Shown here one piece after another: positions 1 through 9,764 of a stretch of DNA of 11,786 nt. Source of the stretch: a virus (lineage: Duplodnaviria > Heunggongvirae > Uroviricota > Caudoviricetes). The stretch lies in the IMG/VR virus record IMGVR_UViG_2698536590_000002; one strand, 5' to 3'. Positions within the stretch are counted from its first letter, which is position 1. The number at the start of each line of letters is the position of its first letter. The translations under genes and the position numbers were made by a program. Below the pieces are notes generated by a model. The model ran no database searches and was not told where the DNA came from. It was given only the letters and a program-made list of their open reading frames with translations.

Positions 1-338
1 GTAAGTTGGCAGCATCACCAGCCTTCTTGAGGCTACCACCTGTTTTCAGGTGTCATTCAGACGTGATTTGCCCCAGATTGGGAAAGCACGCTTTTTTCTC
101 AGCTATCGTCCTCTTATTTTGCCGTTACATTTCTTTTTGCACTCTAATGATTAATTTACAATAATAATATCGGTAATTATTGAGTAATAATAAATTGATT
201 ATTGCAAATGTAATTTAATTCCATCTTCGCGTTATATTTCAATCTTTAATCTCCGCATGGAACAAGTTGCATGCGTGACTATATTAAGACAACTTATAAC
301 CACCAAAACATTTGCTTTGCAAGCAAAAACAGTGACCA

Positions 339-367
339 TTGACTCTAAGAAAATTCCGATCTATTGT
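339..367 (+). promoter_or_regulatory. candidate sigma70 promoter TTGACT-N17-TATTGT
   Basis: TTGACT at 339-344, exact 17-nt spacer, TATTGT at 362-367; a near-palindrome TTTGCTTTGCAAGCAAA (311-327) lies just upstream. Sequence pattern only. Confidence 0.25.
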
Positions 368-652
368 TAGGGTCATCAAAGTTACTTAACAGTATTCCGA
401 AATGAAAATACAAAGCAAGCTAATTGTCTTATTAAACATTATTATTGCATTTATATTATTTGAGCTTTTAGCTCAAAAATTTGGTTTGAGTACATTATTT
501 TAAAGCAAGATAAACAATATCGGGCACTCTAGTTTTTATAATTAACAATTAAACGTCCATGAAATGTTATTTACTTTTCTTCGCTATTGTCATATCTTAA
601 TATAGTGGCTTACGCCACTCTACTTTCATCACATTTTGTACGTTTATGTACT

Positions 653-682
653 CGCCATGAAGCTCTTTCATGGCGATTTTTT
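653..682 (+). terminator. intrinsic terminator-like hairpin plus T-tract
   Basis: 9-bp perfect stem CGCCATGAA / TTCATGGCG (653-661 / 667-675), 5-nt loop, then ATTTTTTATT. The T-run follows the hairpin only on the plus strand. Confidence 0.4.
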
Positions 683-768
683 ATTCTTAATCCAAGAACA
701 TACTCCCTACCTATAGCAAAATCACTTTTTTAACAAAAGAATAACGTATTTAGGTAATCATTACGAAT

Positions 769-1350
769 TTACCCTATAGGTGCTACTGGCCATTCAATAT
801 CCGGTGCAGTTAATGTATCAACACGGTTCAGCAACACCCGATACTTTTTCCAGGCTTCCAGCAACAAGGTTTCTTCCTCCGTTGCGATTTCCAGATCTAC
901 AGCATCCTGAAGTGGCGCAATATGCTCACTGGCTACCTGCATCAGGCTGTTTTTTGTTTCTTCTGCCTCCCGGATCCGGAACAGTTTTTCTGCTTCCGTA
1001 TCCTTCACCCAGGCTGTGCCGTTCCACTTCTGATATTCCCCTCCCGGCGACAACCAGGTAACATTTTCCGGTAACGGACCGAGTTCAGAAATAAATAACG
1101 CGTCGCCGGAAGCCACGTCATAAACCGTTTTACCCCGATGGTCTTCAACGAGATGCCACGATGCCTCATCACTGTTGAAAACAGCCACGAAGCCTGCCGG
1201 AATATCTGGTGGTGCAATATCGGTACTGTTTGCTGGCAGACCTGTATGAGGCGGAATATATGCGTCACCTTCACCAATAAATTCATTAGTTCCGGCCAGC
1301 AGATTATAAATTTTTATGGTCCGTGCTTGTTCACTCATTCTGAATGCCAT
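769..1350 (-). CDS. tfa: tail fibre assembly protein (lambda Tfa / T4 gp38-like chaperone family)
   Basis: 193-aa ORF starting [50 protein letters not shown], recognised as the conserved Tfa N-terminal domain of lambdoid prophages. ATG overlaps the stf stop (TAATG), indicating translational coupling. Confidence 0.85.
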
Positions 1351-4300
1351 TATGCAAGCCTCACAATATAGTTAAATGCGATGTTTTTGACGGTGTTTTC
1401 CGCGTTACCCGCAGCGTTAACGGTGATGGTGTGTCCATGTGAGCCAATCGCAACGGAGTGCGTATGAGCACCAATACCGACAGTATGTGCATGTGCGCCT
1501 GCGATTGCAGCAGTGCCGGACAGCGAGTGGGTATGAGCACCATCTGATGATGTCTTCCCTGCATTACGAGTCTGGCCACTACCGCTTGTTGTGCTCATAA
1601 TCCCCGCGCTTGGATTTGAAATCGCGGTATAACCATTAGGGAAAATGCTCGTGTTCGTGCCACCAAATGCACCGGAACTCTTGTGTTGGTGCGCGCCGGC
1701 ACTATTTGCGGTCCCGCTAATACTATGGGTATGCGCCCCGGTGTTATTCGTGGATTTGGTTCCGTAATCAAACGACGATGTGGTTTTCGTCCCCAAATCC
1801 GTACTGGATGCGCTGGCGCTGTGGGTGTGCGATTTAATGCCGTCCTGTTCCTGAGACAATACGGCGCGACCACTGGCAGGTTTGCCCTTAATCGTCCAGC
1901 CACGCATATCAGGGATCACGCCTGACGGATAAGCGGCTGCAAGTTTCGGGTATGCAGATTTGTCAAAAGTCTGCCCCTGCATCAGGGCATAACCAGACGG
2001 AACGGTATCTGATGGCCACGGGATTGGTGCGCCGACTGGGTAGCTTTCTGGTGGAAGATTTTTCGAGGTATAAACTTCTGCCCAGTCTTCCTCAAAACCA
2101 TAGCCATCTCTTGAGGAACGGTAGAACAGACCTCCATTTCTGTAATGTGCCTTCATCTGCAGGGTCCGGCAACTTCCGACTCCGGTATAGAAGTTAACCA
2201 GAATATAGCTGTCGCCAGAGCGGGTGACATTGTAAGCGCCTGATTCGGCATTCCATGGAACGCCCCCATCCGCATCGGCATATGTATCCGTTGCCCTTCT
2301 GGCAAAAGCAGCCACATGCGCGGCGGTTAAAGTAATATCTTTGGAACCATCAAACTCAACACCAGAAACCAGTCTTGGCGTTTGCAGCTTTGTTGCTGTT
2401 AATGCATTACCATTCAGACTTGCGGACAGTTTGGTTCCAATAATCAGTTCGCCGGTTGCGTTATCAATAGCAAACGGTCTTAATGTATTCCAGCCACCAT
2501 AAACATCACCTTGATTGGTAAGCAGCAGGTAAGTTTTAGCGCCATCATTACGCCATAATGCACCATACTCCCCACCTATCATTCGAATCTGATTACCACC
2601 ACGCGCTACAATTTCGTCTGTGGCAAAAAGTTTTTTGCACGACAAGTTATCGTTAACGATTAACGAATGAGACTCATAAAAACCACGCCCACTCTTAAAA
2701 TCAAGGATAACGTCCGCCGCGATACATTCAGTCGCCGGATTTGTTGCCCCAAACTTATAGGTCGTATCATTAACAACGAGATCAGCACCAGGTGCGGATA
2801 TTGACAGGCCATCTTCGATAAACGCAAAAACAGGGAAAGCAGCGCCATCAACATAGAACACAGAGCGCAAATCATCGCCCTTATTACTCATCATTATTGA
2901 GTGGATGGCTCGTTCATTGTTTTGATATTGCCAGAACATTCCATAAGCATAACGCCCCCTGTCAGTCCAGCCACCAGGCATAACAAATCCGTTAAACTCG
3001 CAGTTATTCATCGGATCGCCTGCGGTTCGCGTTGCCGTGGTGATAATGACCCTTGATGCCAGTTCGCTTACTGAGCCAGCAGAACGCATAACAACAACAG
3101 GGTAATATTTTCCAGATATTGCACCTGCAGGAGCGTTAACCCGCACATAACGCATACCACGCTTATCAGCAAAGTCTGTTTTACTGACCGCGTTAATGTT
3201 GTTCAGGAAGCGTCCCTTATCGGGTATATCAGCGCCGTTCTGGTCTTTCTGCAGACGTTTCTCTGCATTGTCATAGGCTGATTTTACTGCCTTTGGCGTT
3301 GCCGCCAGCGTTTCAGACGAACTGTTGGTCGCACTGCTGAGCTGTACTATCCCCTTTTTCGTCGTACTTGCATCCTCAAGCGCCACGGCGGATGCAATAT
3401 CCTCTGCCCGTTTAGCTGCTGTCTCGGCGCGCGTTGCTGCGGATTCTGCCGTATTCTTGCTCTGTGCTGCCGCCGTCGCACTGCCAGCAGCCTCTGTTGC
3501 CTTCGTGGATGCCGTCGTGGCGCTGCCTTTCGCTGCTGATGCCTGTCTGGTCGCCTCATCTTTTGAAGCAGACGCCGATGAGGCCGATGACGCCGCCGAA
3601 CTGGCGGACGATGCGGCAGCCGTTTTTGAGGATTCTGCGCTGGTTTCCGACGCTTTCGCGTTCGTTTCGGATGTCTTCGCTGCGGAAGCTGACCTCGCTG
3701 CTGCGTTGGCCTGTTCAGTGGCTTCGCCAGCCTTCGTTGTGGCTGTTGAAGCAGACGATGCGGCACTTTCTGCCGATTTTCCGGCGGCGGTGGCACTGGC
3801 TGAGGCCTGCCCGGCACTTGTTGACGCGGCGCTGGCAGACGACGCAGCCGCTGTTTTTGAGCCTGCCGCAGCTGAGGCACTCTGTCCCGCTGCCGTTTCA
3901 GAAGACTTAGCGTTCGTCTCGGACGTTTTGGCCGCCTTCGCAGAATTTGCTGTCGCCGTTGCCGAGGAAGCTGCGCTGCTGGCGCTCGAGGCTGCGCTCG
4001 TTTCTGATGATTTTGCCGCCTCTTTTGAAGCTGACGCATCCCGGGCTGAGGTGGCAGCTTCTGACGCTTTCGTGGTCGCGGTGGATGCAGAAGTGGCTGC
4101 TGATTGTTGTGACGCTGCCGCATTCGTTTCTGACGTTTTCGCCGCAGCGGCACTGGTGGCCGCCGCGCTTTTTGAGGACTCTGCAGCGGCAGCACTTTTT
4201 TCCGCTTCAGTGGCCTTTGTTGATGCCGTTCCTGCGCTGGAAGACGCTGACTGAGCCGACGACGCGGCCTGTCCGGCTGACGTGCTGGCTGCGCGTGCTG

Positions 4301-4757
4301 AGCCTGCAGCATCAGTCGCATGGGTTGCCGCCTCACGGGCTGATGTGCCGGCATCGCTGGCTGACTTCTTCGCGGCTGCCGTGTTCTGTGCCACCGCGGA
4401 CGCGTTACGCGCCACCTCTTCCACCATCAGCTCAAAACGGCGCAGTGCCTCCGGACGGGCATCATCCTCCGTCATGGCACCAAGAAAATCATTCAGCGTA
4501 CCCGGTTGTGAGTCTTCATACACGGTGATGGTCCCGGCATGCGATGGCGGGAAGCCTTCCACCAACAGAATAACGCTGTACTGACCGTACTCAACGTCCA
4601 TGCTGTAACGCCCGGCTTCATCCGGATTTTCTGAGGCCACCGTGTTCACCACCACCGTGGTGCTGTTACGTTTTGCTTTCAGCTGGATTGTGCAGTTCTG
4701 TACCGGTTTTCCTGTGCCGTCTTTCAGTACACCTGAAATCTTTACTGCCATATTCAC
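1350..4757 (-). CDS. stf: side tail fibre protein (lambda Stf / Rac StfR-like)
   Basis: 1135-codon ORF. The track start is GTG at 4755-4757; the first ATG is two codons in (4749-4751), preceded by GGGGTG, giving [26 protein letters not shown], the conserved Stf N-terminus, so the real start is probably 4751. Ala/Ser/Thr-rich repeat shaft, conserved [50 protein letters not shown] block, C-terminal tip with seven HxH motifs, ending [11 protein letters not shown]. Confidence 0.9.
3390..4409 (-). repeat. intragenic low-complexity Ala/Ser/Thr-rich tandem repeats in the stf shaft
   Basis: Stf residues ~117-456 are almost entirely A/S/T/K/E with the unit AAKTSETNA recurring three times at roughly 70-90-residue spacing. 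The GC-rich codons create long spurious ORFs in other frames and on the opposite strand. Confidence 0.7.
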
Positions 4758-4815: not shown

Positions 4816-5415
4816 TCAGAACTTATAACCGACACCCACGATGAAACCGTCAGTGCGCCAGTCACCACTGCCGGAGCCTTCATAAGCAATATCAATGGCC
4901 ACGGATTCGGTCGGGTTAAACTGCACGCCAGCCCCCCACGCCAGAGACGTGTTGCTGTGGCGACCGTCATCACTTCCGGTCAGCACATCGTGCGTTTTCC
5001 CCTTGTTGTCAGTTACGCGGAGATAATCCCCGAAGAAAGTCGACACACGGCTGTAAGCCACACCCGCCATCGCATACGCGCTGAACCATTCATTCACGCG
5101 CACAGACGGCCCCGCCATCACGCTGAACCAGCGGTTACGCACGGAATCTTCATGCCAGCGGGTATCGCTGTAACGGGTAAGCTGGCGATTCTTGTCTCCT
5201 GCATAGCTGAATGACGTCATCAGCCCCAGTGTGTCCGTAAACTCATAACGGTATTTCACGTTAATCCCGTTCAGATTATCGCTGCCGGGAACGTTCGCCA
5301 AGGCATGAAGATACCCCGCGCTCAGCGTGGACTGATGTTCAGATGCCCATGCAGGCGCACCGGATACGGCCAGACAAATGGCTGCGGAAAAAATGGCGGC
5401 ATAAAGTTTACGCAT
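4816..5415 (-). CDS. lom: outer membrane beta-barrel protein Lom (Ail/Lom/PagC/Rck family)
   Basis: 199-aa ORF with signal peptide [24 protein letters not shown], alternating beta-strand pattern, and C-terminal GVGYKF aromatic terminus typical of outer membrane proteins. Position between J and stf matches lambda gene order. RBS GAGAGG upstream. Confidence 0.85.
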
Positions 5416-5484: not shown

Positions 5485-6126
5485 TCAACGAATACTGATG
5501 CCGGAAGCGGCTTTTTTGGTCACAATCACCGTACAGTCGGTGATATTACCTGCCCGCTGATTGCCTTTATGGAAAACCTTAAACTCCAGAGTGACGCTTC
5601 CCCTGCCACTCGGCATATCAATAACCGCACTGTAGCTACCGGGAATGGCCCCTTTAGTTTCTCTGGATGCGATTAATACACCGTTTTTGCGAACTTCAAA
5701 ACCATAACCCGTGTATCTTGTACCTCCCGGGTTATTACCACTTCCCGGATCGCTATACGCTATTCCGTTAAAGATAATGGGCGGAATAATGATTTGACGG
5801 TCAAAGTTATGATCATCGCTGATGGTGACTGTAACCGTCCCGTTTGGTGTTTCCGTATTACCCCACGTACCAGCCTGTTTCGGGAATGATTTGGATACAG
5901 CTTTAACGAAGTCACCTCTGACCTGAGTCGCCTCCAGCATGCCCTTAATCGTACAGTTTTCATTTACCGTGACATTGTTGAGCGTCCCGGCGTTCGCATT
6001 CACACTGCCACTGATATCCGCATTTTTAGCGGTCAGCTTTCCGTCCGGTGTCAGGGAAAATGCCGGTGGATTTCCACCGCTGGTAATGGTGGGGGCCGTC
6101 AGGCGTTTCAGGAACACGTCGTTCAT
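5485..6126 (-). CDS. C-terminal receptor-binding domain of host-specificity protein J (central tail fibre), present as a truncated stand-alone ORF
   Basis: 213-aa ORF; motifs [40 protein letters not shown] and DDH.FDRQI resemble the extreme C-terminus of lambda gpJ as I recall it. Its ATG overlaps the T stop (ATGA) exactly where H would normally start; the preceding sequence GAAGGGATCAGATATTC matches the lambda T/H junction. A full J is ~1100 aa, so roughly 900 codons plus H-I are absent. Confidence 0.6.
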
Positions 6127-6545
6127 GAATATCTGATCCCTTCTGATACTGTCATCAGCATTACGTCATCCTCCGTCATGTCCGCCACATCCGGGGAAGC
6201 GGGGATAACTTCATTCCCGTCCGGGCCAAAGCGGACACCTCCGGCAAGCCCTGCCGCTTTCTGCATCAGCACATCATCTTCAGGCTCTTCGTCAGCCTCG
6301 CGCCGGTTCAGCAGACTGAAATCCAGCGGATGCATATCCGGATCGCTGAAAAACAGGCTGAGCACGGTGTACGTCAGCCCGGAAAAGTGCATATCCAGCA
6401 GAACATCATGAAAATAATGGGTACTGTAAAAGCGGTGCCAGTCGGCATACTCCGTGGATGACATCCCGGCAAGCATGGCACGCCAGTCGGGTCGCCCCAT
6501 CTCACGCGCCAGTTTCAGGGCAAAACTCAGCTCACCGTCGAACAC
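6123..6545 (-). CDS. T: tail assembly chaperone T frame, expressed as a G-T fusion by -1 frameshift
   Basis: -1 frame relative to G with no independent ATG; reads (V)[39 protein letters not shown]...VSEGIRYS, matching lambda gpT. Confidence 0.8.
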
Positions 6546-6949
6546 TTTCCCGCAGAAACAGGCTCTGCGGGCCCGGCGTCCTCTGTCTGTTCAGGGGCAT
6601 TATTCACCACAAACTCATACATACCAGACAGCCGGTACACCACGTTTTCAGCATGAGAAATTGCCTCCGTGGGCCAGGTGGTAAGCACTTCCTGCTCAAT
6701 CTGTTTAACGGCTTCATTCATGGACGGCATCTGCGTCTTCTGCGGATGGTTATGCCACAGGGACATCGCCACCAGAAACGCGCCGGTTCTGATGGCGTCT
6801 TCCACAGTAAACTTCCGGTTGCTGTCTGACTCCGCCTGTTCTGCCTGCCGTTTCATCAGGGCGAGATGCTCAATGCGCTGCAGGGCTGACAGTTCAGAAA
6901 GCGTGACGGTCACACCGTTATGTTCAAATGATTCGGTTTTCAGGAACAT
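6527..6949 (-). CDS. G: tail assembly chaperone G
   Basis: 140-aa ORF MFLKTESFEHNGVTVTLSELSALQRIEHLALMKRQAEQ...[11 protein letters not shown], recognised as lambda gpG (same length). RBS GGAGAG upstream; sits between the V stop and the T frame. Confidence 0.85.
   Translation of the reverse strand: MFLKTESFEHNGVTVTLSELSALQRIEHLALMKRQAEQAESDSNRKFTVEDAIRTGAFLVAMSLWHNHPQKTQMPSMNEAVKQIEQEVLTTWPTEAISHAENVVYRLSGMYEFVVNNAPEQTEDAGPAEPVSAGKCSTVS
6545..6551 (-). other. programmed -1 ribosomal frameshift slippery heptamer G GGA AAG (G to G-T)
   Basis: Plus-strand CTTTCCC at 6545-6551 is GGGAAAG on the coding strand, in G frame as G_GGA_AAG (codons A-G-K of ...SAGKCSTVS). This is the canonical lambda G/T slip site, and the T frame opens exactly here. 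Confidence 0.8.
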
Positions 6950-6964
6950 CGCTGACTCTCCGGA

Positions 6965-7375
6965 TTAACTGGCGGTGACGGTAATTTCTGCAACCGCAGC
7001 AAACTCACCATTACCGGATACAACCGGAATGTTGACCTTGCCTGCAGCAACGCCGTTCACGGTGATGGTCATACCACTGACCGACACGGTGGCTTTTGTT
7101 TTATCCGCAGACACCGCACGAAAGCTCTTGTCGGTTACGCCCTCCGGCTGGAAGGCCACGGTCAGCGTGGTGCTCTGCCCTTTCACCACCGAGGTGCTGG
7201 CAGGCGTCACGGTCATGCCGGTTGCCGCTGTTACCGTGCTGCGATCTTCTGCCATCGACGGACGTCCCACATTGGTGACTTTCACCGTGCGGGTGATCAC
7301 TTCCTTCGCCGTCACCGCCTTACCGATACTGCTGACCCAGCCACGGAACACATCGATCGTGCCGTTCGGGAACCG
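6965..7375 (-). pseudogene. V: major tail protein V, C-terminal half only (includes the Ig-like domain); N-terminal ~115 codons deleted
   Basis: Frame reads [47 protein letters not shown]...AEITVTAS, matching lambda gpV from about residue 115 to its end. An in-frame TAG sits immediately upstream (7379-7381); there is no ATG or credible RBS, only an internal GTG at 7349-7351. Confidence 0.8.
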
Positions 7376-8024: not shown

Positions 8025-9107
8025 ATGAAAAAATTAACAGTGGCAATTTCTGCTGTAGCTGCATCAGTACTGATGGCGATGTCTGCTCAGGCAGCTGAAA
8101 TTTATAATAAAGACAGTAACAAGCTGGATCTGTACGGGAAAGTTAATGCTAAGCACTACTTCTCCTCTAATGATGCAGATGATGGTGATACTACTTATGC
8201 CCGTCTTGGCTTCAAAGGTGAAACCCAAATCAACGATCAACTGACTGGTTTCGGTCAGTGGGAATATGAATTCAAAGGCAACCGCGCTGAATCTCAAGGT
8301 TCCTCCAAAGATAAAACCCGTCTTGCCTTCGCTGGCCTGAAATTCGGTGACTACGGCTCCATCGATTACGGCCGTAACTACGGTGTAGCATACGACATCG
8401 GTGCGTGGACTGACGTCCTGCCAGAATTCGGTGGTGACACTTGGACTCAAACAGATGTGTTCATGACTGGTCGCACCACTGGTGTTGCAACTTATCGTAA
8501 CAACGACTTCTTTGGTCTGGTTGATGGTCTGAACTTTGCTGCTCAGTATCAGGGTAAAAATGACCGCACTGACGTAACTGAAGCTAATGGTGATGGTTTC
8601 GGTTTCTCCACTACTTATGAGTATGAAGGATTCGGTGTAGGTGCAACCTATGCTAAATCTGATCGCACTAATAATCAGGTTATCTACGGTAACAACGGTC
8701 TGAATGCTTCTGGTCAAAATGCTGAAGTATGGGCAGCTGGTCTGAAATATGATGCGAACAACATCTATCTGGCCACCACCTATTCTGAAACCCAGAACAT
8801 GACTGTTTTTGGTAATAACCATATTGCCAACAAAGCACAAAACTTCGAAGCTGTTGCACAATATCAGTTCGACTTCGGCCTGCGTCCATCCGTTGCTTAC
8901 CTGCATTCTAAAGGAAAAGACTTGGGTGTTTGGGGTGATCAGGACCTGGTTGAATATGTTGATGTAGGTGCAACCTATTACTTCAACAAAAATATGTCCA
9001 CTTTTGTTGACTACAAAATCAACCTGATTGATAAGAGCGATTTCACGAAAGCATCTGGCGTTGCTACCGATGATATCGTTGCTGTAGGTATGGTTTACCA
9101 GTTCTAA
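8025..9107 (+). CDS. nmpC: phage-borne general porin of the OmpC/OmpF/PhoE family (NmpC / Lc type)
   Basis: 360-aa ORF with signal peptide [23 protein letters not shown], mature N-terminus [17 protein letters not shown], porin hallmarks ([43 protein letters not shown]) and C-terminal VYQF. Matches what I recall of NmpC/Lc. Divergent from and adjacent to Q, as in DLP12. Confidence 0.9.
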
Positions 9108-9295: not shown

Positions 9296-9679
9296 TTAAT
9301 TAGAGTTATTAACAACGATATCCATCTCTAACCGGATATCTAATGCCATTAACATCCCTTCAATTATGCCCTCAGCCTTCTGTAACCTTTTCCCGATATA
9401 ACCATCAGAGCAGCAATGCTTACCTGCCAGTGACATGAATGTCATACCGACTACATAATAATCTACTAATAAATCGTGCAAATCGCTGTTGTTCTTTTTC
9501 AGACGGGCCATGCACCCGCAAATAATCATCGCGTCATCGTCACAACATTGCGGGCGAGATTTTACTTTTGAAGTAATTAATCCCTTAAAACCGGCGGCAA
9601 TGGACGACCAGGTCACATCTTCATGATTATTAGCCGCCCACGCTCCCCAACGCTCAAGAACCATCTGAATATCACGCAT
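9296..9679 (-). CDS. quuD: late-gene antitermination protein Q (phage 82 / DLP12 QuuD-like)
   Basis: 127 aa from ATG at 9677-9679 (RBS GGAG; the track ORF extends upstream from a TTG). Reads [64 protein letters not shown]..., recognised as the 82-type Q family with its Cys-rich zinc motif. Gene order rusA-ylcG-Q-nmpC matches DLP12. Confidence 0.8.
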
Positions 9680-9764
9680 CAACTTACTCCACAAAAATCA
9701 GACCAGAACGCCAATTACAAGCAAAAATCAACAAAACAGTATTAGTTGATTGTTATCTCTGACT

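Follow-up and report, generated by a model that had tools for sequence, protein, structure and literature searches.

Seven HxH motifs in the side tail fibre of a defective E. coli prophage align with those of the T4 gp37 receptor-binding tip

Introduction

The side tail fibre protein (Stf) encoded by the prophage analyzed here ends in a histidine-rich stretch, raising the question of whether this stretch is a metal-pinned, receptor-binding needle of the T4 gp37 kind or merely a compositional trait of a repetitive sequence. The DNA analyzed, hereafter the window, is 11,786 nt in length (IMGVR_UViG_2698536590_000002). A preliminary description, made from its letters alone, had counted seven HxH motifs toward the Stf C terminus, equated this number with that of T4 gp37, and predicted a metal-stabilized needle with the adjacent, coupled tfa as its chaperone.

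In T4, three intertwined gp37 chains form a six-stranded antiparallel needle (PMC6957217, PMC9659904) along which seven iron atoms are found (PMC6957217), one of these sites being formed by H929 of the three chains (PMC6957217, PMC9659904). Substitutions H929A and H931A, whose equivalents are in HxH 3 of the window Stf, abolish plaque formation (PMC6957217), and apical residues of the needle contact LPS and OmpC (PMC6957217, PMC9659904). The lambda Stf tip is homologous to that of gp37 and binds OmpC (PMC12617516, PMC9659904). Lambda Tfa and T4 gp38 are each needed for trimerization of the cognate tip (PMC6957217, PMC12617516, PMC9659904), and lambda Tfa is able to replace T4 gp38 (PMC12617516, PMC9659904).

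Results

Domain architecture of Stf

The genes stf and tfa adjoin on the minus strand, and the cassette comprises the following features:

769-1350, minus strand: tfa, 193-aa tail fibre assembly protein (Pfam Caudo_TAP PF02413, E = 3.9e-42)
1350-4757, minus strand: stf, 1135-aa side tail fibre, GTG start, TAA stop (ORF list)
1353-2048, minus strand: predicted receptor-binding tip, Stf 904-1135, homologous to the crystallized T4 gp37 tip (phmmer against PDB)
1536-1682, minus strand: apical hypervariable segment, Stf 1026-1074, 49 aa, with low identity to T4 and lambda
1890-2033, minus strand: phage tail collar domain, Stf 909-956 (Pfam PF07484, E = 6.8e-12)

The N terminus of Stf carried a prophage tail fibre domain (phage_tail_N, PF08400, E = 1.9e-72) and, as a first likeness to lambda, an N-terminal collar domain whose residues 3-96 matched the lambda-type collar on the tail (PDB 9E7M/9MGH, E = 2.6e-52). 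A T4 gp34-type trimerization domain (Gp34_trimer) was also recovered by Pfam (E = 3.4e-27), and matches to solved structures along the protein comprised 9E7M/9MGH, 5YVQ, 8JU3, 4UXE, and 2XGF. Mu fibre S (5YVQ, 8JU3) matched residues 442-523 and 815-909 only, and the HxH needle (904-1135) was without a Mu match. The collar segment also aligned to the T4 gp37 collar and to the short tail fibre 9CUY (E = 4.6e-9). Judged by these matches, Stf is a mosaic: its N-terminal collar is of the lambda type, its shaft is rich in Ala, Ser, and Thr, further segments resemble Mu S and T4 gp34, and its tip is of the T4 gp37 type.

The shaft, spanning residues ~110-480 (window ~3318-4430), is of low complexity, rich in Ala, Ser, and Thr, and has a GC content of 0.61-0.63. 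Long spurious ORFs arise in this region at 3325-4254 (plus strand, 309 aa) and 3347-4354 (minus strand, 335 aa), and part of the shaft is covered by the Mu fibre S match at Stf 442-523 (5YVQ).

Number and position of the HxH motifs

Translation of the minus-strand ORF placed exactly seven HxH motifs in the last 160 residues of Stf, within window positions 1431-1829. Number, span, and Gly/Ser/Ala surroundings were all as the preliminary description had them. No HxH was found elsewhere in Stf, and 14 of the protein's 20 His sit in these seven motifs, which are arranged as follows:

1821-1829, minus strand: HxH 1, H977-T-H979 (SHTHS), aligned with T4 H883-S-H885
1725-1733, minus strand: HxH 2, H1009-T-H1011 (AHTHS), aligned with T4 H915-T-H917
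1683-1691, minus strand: HxH 3, H1023-Q-H1025 (AHQHK), aligned with T4 H929-S-H931
1527-1535, minus strand: HxH 4, H1075-T-H1077 (AHTHS), aligned with T4 H966-S-H968
1485-1493, minus strand: HxH 5, H1089-A-H1091 (AHAHT), aligned with T4 H980-S-H982
1458-1466, minus strand: HxH 6, H1098-T-H1100 (AHTHS), aligned with T4 H989-T-H991
1431-1439, minus strand: HxH 7, H1107-G-H1109 (SHGHT), aligned with T4 H998-G-H1000

For comparison with chance, 20,000 composition-preserving shuffles were made for each of three sequences: whole Stf, its last 230 aa, and its last 170 aa. These gave means of 0.34, 0.78, and 1.06 HxH motifs and maxima of 4, 6, and 5, respectively, and seven motifs were reached in 0 of 20,000 shuffles in every case. 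Chance does not account for the cluster of seven. When the tip DNA was searched for direct repeats, those detected were all of 14-18 nt and encoded GAHTHS units, with no sign of recent duplication. A weak match to the Pfam Phage_fiber repeat (PF03335) covered Stf 1004-1017, over HxH 2.

Register with the T4 gp37 tip

All PDB sequences were searched (phmmer) with the last 350 residues of Stf. The best match among solved structures was the T4 gp37 tip, 2XGF (E = 7.4e-83), pairing Stf 904-1135 with gp37 811-1026; this structure is reportedly that of Bartual et al. 2010. The preliminary description had allowed that the region might align better to a non-gp37 fold. No such competing fold covered the HxH needle in the PDB search, the other matches falling ahead of the needle (Mu fibre S) or in the collar (short tail fibre).

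The sequences of T4 gp37 and gp38 and of lambda orf-314 and orf-194 were taken from annotated records, and the tips were aligned three ways. The window tip shared 69% identity with T4 gp37 over 232 aa and 77% with lambda orf-314, and all 14 HxH His were invariant across the three proteins. Within the crystallized part of T4 gp37, HxH motifs start at residues 883, 915, 929, 966, 980, 989, and 998, so that seven stand against seven and are aligned one for one. The alignment that had been proposed as a check on the gp37 comparison thus put every motif in its T4 column. The offset from T4 to the window Stf was +94 for motifs 1-3 and +109 for motifs 4-7, with spacings within the arms the same as in T4 (32 and 14 outward; 14, 9, and 9 on return). 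From the last HxH to the C terminus there are 28 residues in both proteins, and a C-terminal stretch of 12 residues is identical.

The sole length difference from the T4 tip therefore lies at the apex, where the stretch between motifs 3 and 4 is 15 residues longer (49 aa here compared with 34 aa in T4). Identity was likewise lowest in this segment, at 26% to T4 and 30% to lambda, in contrast to the collar and outward arm (80% and 88%, respectively) and the return arm (75% and 90%). Given this divergence from T4 in both sequence and length, the receptor may differ.

By sequence, the likeness to T4 extends to the overall layout of collar, needle, and apex and to the presence of a downstream assembly gene of the gp38/Tfa type. 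Unlike the tip, the remainder of Stf is unrelated to gp37 save for mosaic segments. The tip is carried here by a lambdoid prophage, whereas T4 is a virulent myovirus.

Conservation across related tips

A database search returned 1843 relatives at E <= 1e-5, and 111 of the 120 listed kept the whole tip. Seven HxH motifs were present in 108 of these 111, with six in two and five in one. The His columns were 98-100% His across 84 distinct aligned tips, T4 and lambda included, whereas across the same tips the majority-residue frequency at the apex (1026-1074) was just 0.2-0.6; as the listed relatives were mostly 76-100% identical, conservation of the flanks by itself means little, and it is the contrast between flanks and apex that is informative.

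We also considered whether the agreement in number might be fortuitous. This was ruled out, the motifs being positionally homologous to those of T4 and 108 of 111 related tips also having seven.

An identical tip is already public (cluster P0001, 100% identical, 333 members), and phage ev099, like several hundred E. coli sequences, carries a tip of 99% identity. At the DNA level, stf-tfa is 98-98.5% identical in many E. coli genomes, where it is annotated as of the stfR/tfaR type, and at least 80% of it was covered in 1227 of 5426 genomes. The sequenced phage genome of ev099 (LR597635) has the same J-lom-stf-tfa order, its tip being 99.1% identical. Compared with ev099 and other E. coli prophages, the surrounding prophage here has been stripped of most tail genes.

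In lambda, Stf (orf-401/orf-314) and Tfa (orf-194) likewise sit after J and lom. The lambda Stf, at 774 aa, is shorter than the 1135-aa Stf of the window, and its tip contains eight HxH motifs (NC_001416-derived piece 2370-3071 compared with window 1353-2057). The lambda tip owes its eighth motif to an inserted 9-aa unit, IGAHQHPVV, before motif 6, and further differs from that of the window by a 10-aa duplication, SFDYGTKTTG, after motif 1. The count of seven fits T4 and most E. coli prophage tips, not lambda. If folded like that of T4, the lambda needle would be one metal site longer than those of T4 and the prophage.

A side tail fibre tip of 68% identity was also found in MW057783.1, 'Campylobacter phage CJLB-4' (48,361 bp). 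Its host label looks doubtful, as the genome is of lambda size and the fibre of the coliphage type.

The adjacent tfa gene

The preliminary description had taken the adjacent gene to be a coupled tfa of the gp38/Tfa kind, and its sequence agrees. The stf stop and the tfa ATG overlap by one base (TAATG at 1348-1352), the product is a Caudo_TAP protein, and it shares 94% identity with lambda Tfa and 30% with T4 gp38. Its C-terminal third also matched Mu Tfa U (5YVQ chain B, E = 3.9e-9). In every feature that sequence can test, Stf agrees with the gp37-type tip and lambda-type Stf families, and its partner with the Caudo_TAP (Tfa) family.

According to the T4 record, gp38 is an assembly catalyst, to which the gp38 adhesin of the T2 type is unrelated. 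That Tfa might act as an adhesin of the T2 type was considered and ruled out, since it is a member of the family of lambda Tfa and T4 gp38.

The sole Rfam match in the window, to IS009 (RF02111, 227.9 bits, full length), was at 809-1007 on the minus strand, wholly inside tfa. This Rfam 'gene' may be no more than a conserved part of the tfa reading frame. Downstream of tfa, window positions 1-768 are AT-rich (GC ~0.33) with few ORFs, among them a 33-codon hydrophobic ORF at 403-504 on the plus strand, MKIQSKLIVLLNIIIAFILFELLAQKFGLSTLF, seen by eye.

Prophage context

The gene order J (fragment)-lom-stf-tfa, all on the minus strand, is that of lambda, and beyond the tail remnant lie a porin gene, Q, rusA, and an ea22-like gene. 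Features upstream of stf include:

4816-5415, minus strand: lom (ORF list)
5485-6126, minus strand: C-terminal fragment of J, last 213 aa with the receptor-binding domain
6123-6545, minus strand: T, with an ATGA overlap with the J fragment at 6123-6126
6527-6949, minus strand: G
6965-7351, minus strand: C-terminal fragment of the tail tube gene V
8025-9107, plus strand: complete porin, 360 aa (Porin_1, E = 3e-152)
9296-9694, minus strand: Q antiterminator

None of H, M, L, K, I, or the head and lysis genes was found in the window, and most of J (~900 aa) is missing. The locus is a defective E. coli prophage. As H, M, L, K, I, and most of J are missing, it cannot build a tail, and with most tail genes lost this copy of Stf may never reach a virion. 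No complete E. coli genome held at least 80% of the window in one place.

The porin gene lies between Q and the tail remnant, and its counterparts in related genomes are labelled ompC or porin. A prophage-borne porin beside the fibre could matter for superinfection, since tips of the gp37/Stf type use OmpC.

Discussion

Homology to a solved structure makes it highly probable, at roughly 0.9, that the last 232 residues of Stf make up a receptor-binding tip of the T4 gp37 type, namely a metal-pinned trimeric needle with a variable apex and Tfa as its chaperone. We infer the trimer geometry, metal, and receptor of this tip by homology, and because the window Stf keeps every ligand and the exact register, the same construction as in T4 would be expected. 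Three chains would leave the collar (~909-956) and run outward as strands bearing HxH 1-3, form a small apical head (1026-1074) that presumably contacts the receptor, and return as three more strands bearing HxH 4-7, producing a six-stranded intertwined needle. On seven successive levels along the three-fold axis, the HxH motifs of the three chains would supply six imidazole ligands, in octahedral arrangement, to one metal ion per level, which is Fe2+ in T4, thereby pinning the needle; seven ions with six ligands each would fit the 14 His per chain. The hypervariable apex would determine which receptor is bound (OmpC and/or LPS in T4 and Ur-lambda), and the translationally coupled Tfa would act as the gp38-type chaperone required for the trimer to fold. 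An AF2 model of the tip (36-sequence alignment) as a monomer gave a mean pLDDT of 44.5 and a pTM of 0.17, values too low for use, as would be expected of a single chain from an obligate intertwined trimer.

Two alternatives concern the motifs themselves. It is conceivable that HxH is a compositional trait of a Gly/Ser/Ala/Thr/His-rich repeat with no role in metal binding, and the short DNA repeats encoding GAHTHS and the weak PF03335 match over motif 2 point in that direction. However, the motifs are column-aligned to crystallographic iron ligands, their His are 98-100% kept while neighbouring residues vary, and Ala at the equivalent T4 His is lethal (PMC6957217), leaving this alternative extremely improbable. 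The other would retain the same fold and sites and exchange the ion, with a metal other than iron, such as zinc, bound along the needle. Sequence cannot tell metals apart, the collar region matches the short tail fibre 9CUY (E = 4.6e-9), and the short tail fibre of T4, gp12, coordinates zinc with a comparable His motif. We nevertheless consider such a substitution unlikely, given that by far the closest homologue (69% identity, all ligands kept) is reported to bind iron (PMC6957217).

Two further alternatives concern the partner protein and the use of the genes. Rather than serving merely as a chaperone, Tfa might stay on the finished tip and contribute to receptor binding, as does the Mu tail fibre assembly protein, which stays bound to its tip and aids receptor binding. 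The match between the C-terminal third of Tfa and Mu Tfa U, crystallized with fibre S in the same entry (5YVQ), is in keeping with this, but the overall protein is 94% identical to lambda Tfa, a gp38 substitute, and the T4 record has gp38 as an assembly catalyst; a lasting role on the tip thus seems rather doubtful. A stronger case can be made that stf is an unexpressed relic, whose needle is never built in this host and whose cassette persists solely as recombination material for lambdoid phages. The tail block is reduced to the V fragment, G, T, and 213 C-terminal residues of J, and no complete E. coli genome holds the window at 80% or more in one place. Moreover, Rac and Qin are defective prophages too, and lambda recombines with their stf/tfa regions (PMC3945230). 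Yet both ORFs are intact (1135 and 193 codons) and translationally coupled, with 98-98.5% DNA identity to the copies in other genomes, and on balance we lean somewhat against a pure relic while regarding it as quite possible. A relic would in any case bear on gene use, not on the identity of the motifs, and is compatible with the gp37-type needle. Even if silent here, the cassette could donate stf and tfa to incoming lambdoid phages.

The gp37-type tip proposed here is an ordinary receptor-binding needle, and the tip family, its seven metal sites, and its chaperone are already known and have been published for years. What the comparison provides is the placement of a common E. coli prophage Stf in the family of the solved T4 gp37 tip, with the metal-site register kept to the residue. 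The alignment also fixes the boundary between scaffold and apex (1026-1074), a boundary of practical use when the host range of lambda-derived delivery particles is engineered or the receptor specificity of prophage fibres is predicted. More tentatively, the longer and divergent 49-residue apex may confer a range of receptors or OmpC alleles unlike those of the T4 and lambda tips. If so, this tip, widespread among E. coli prophages, would amount to a distinct specificity cassette that can be swapped while the seven-metal scaffold stays otherwise invariant.
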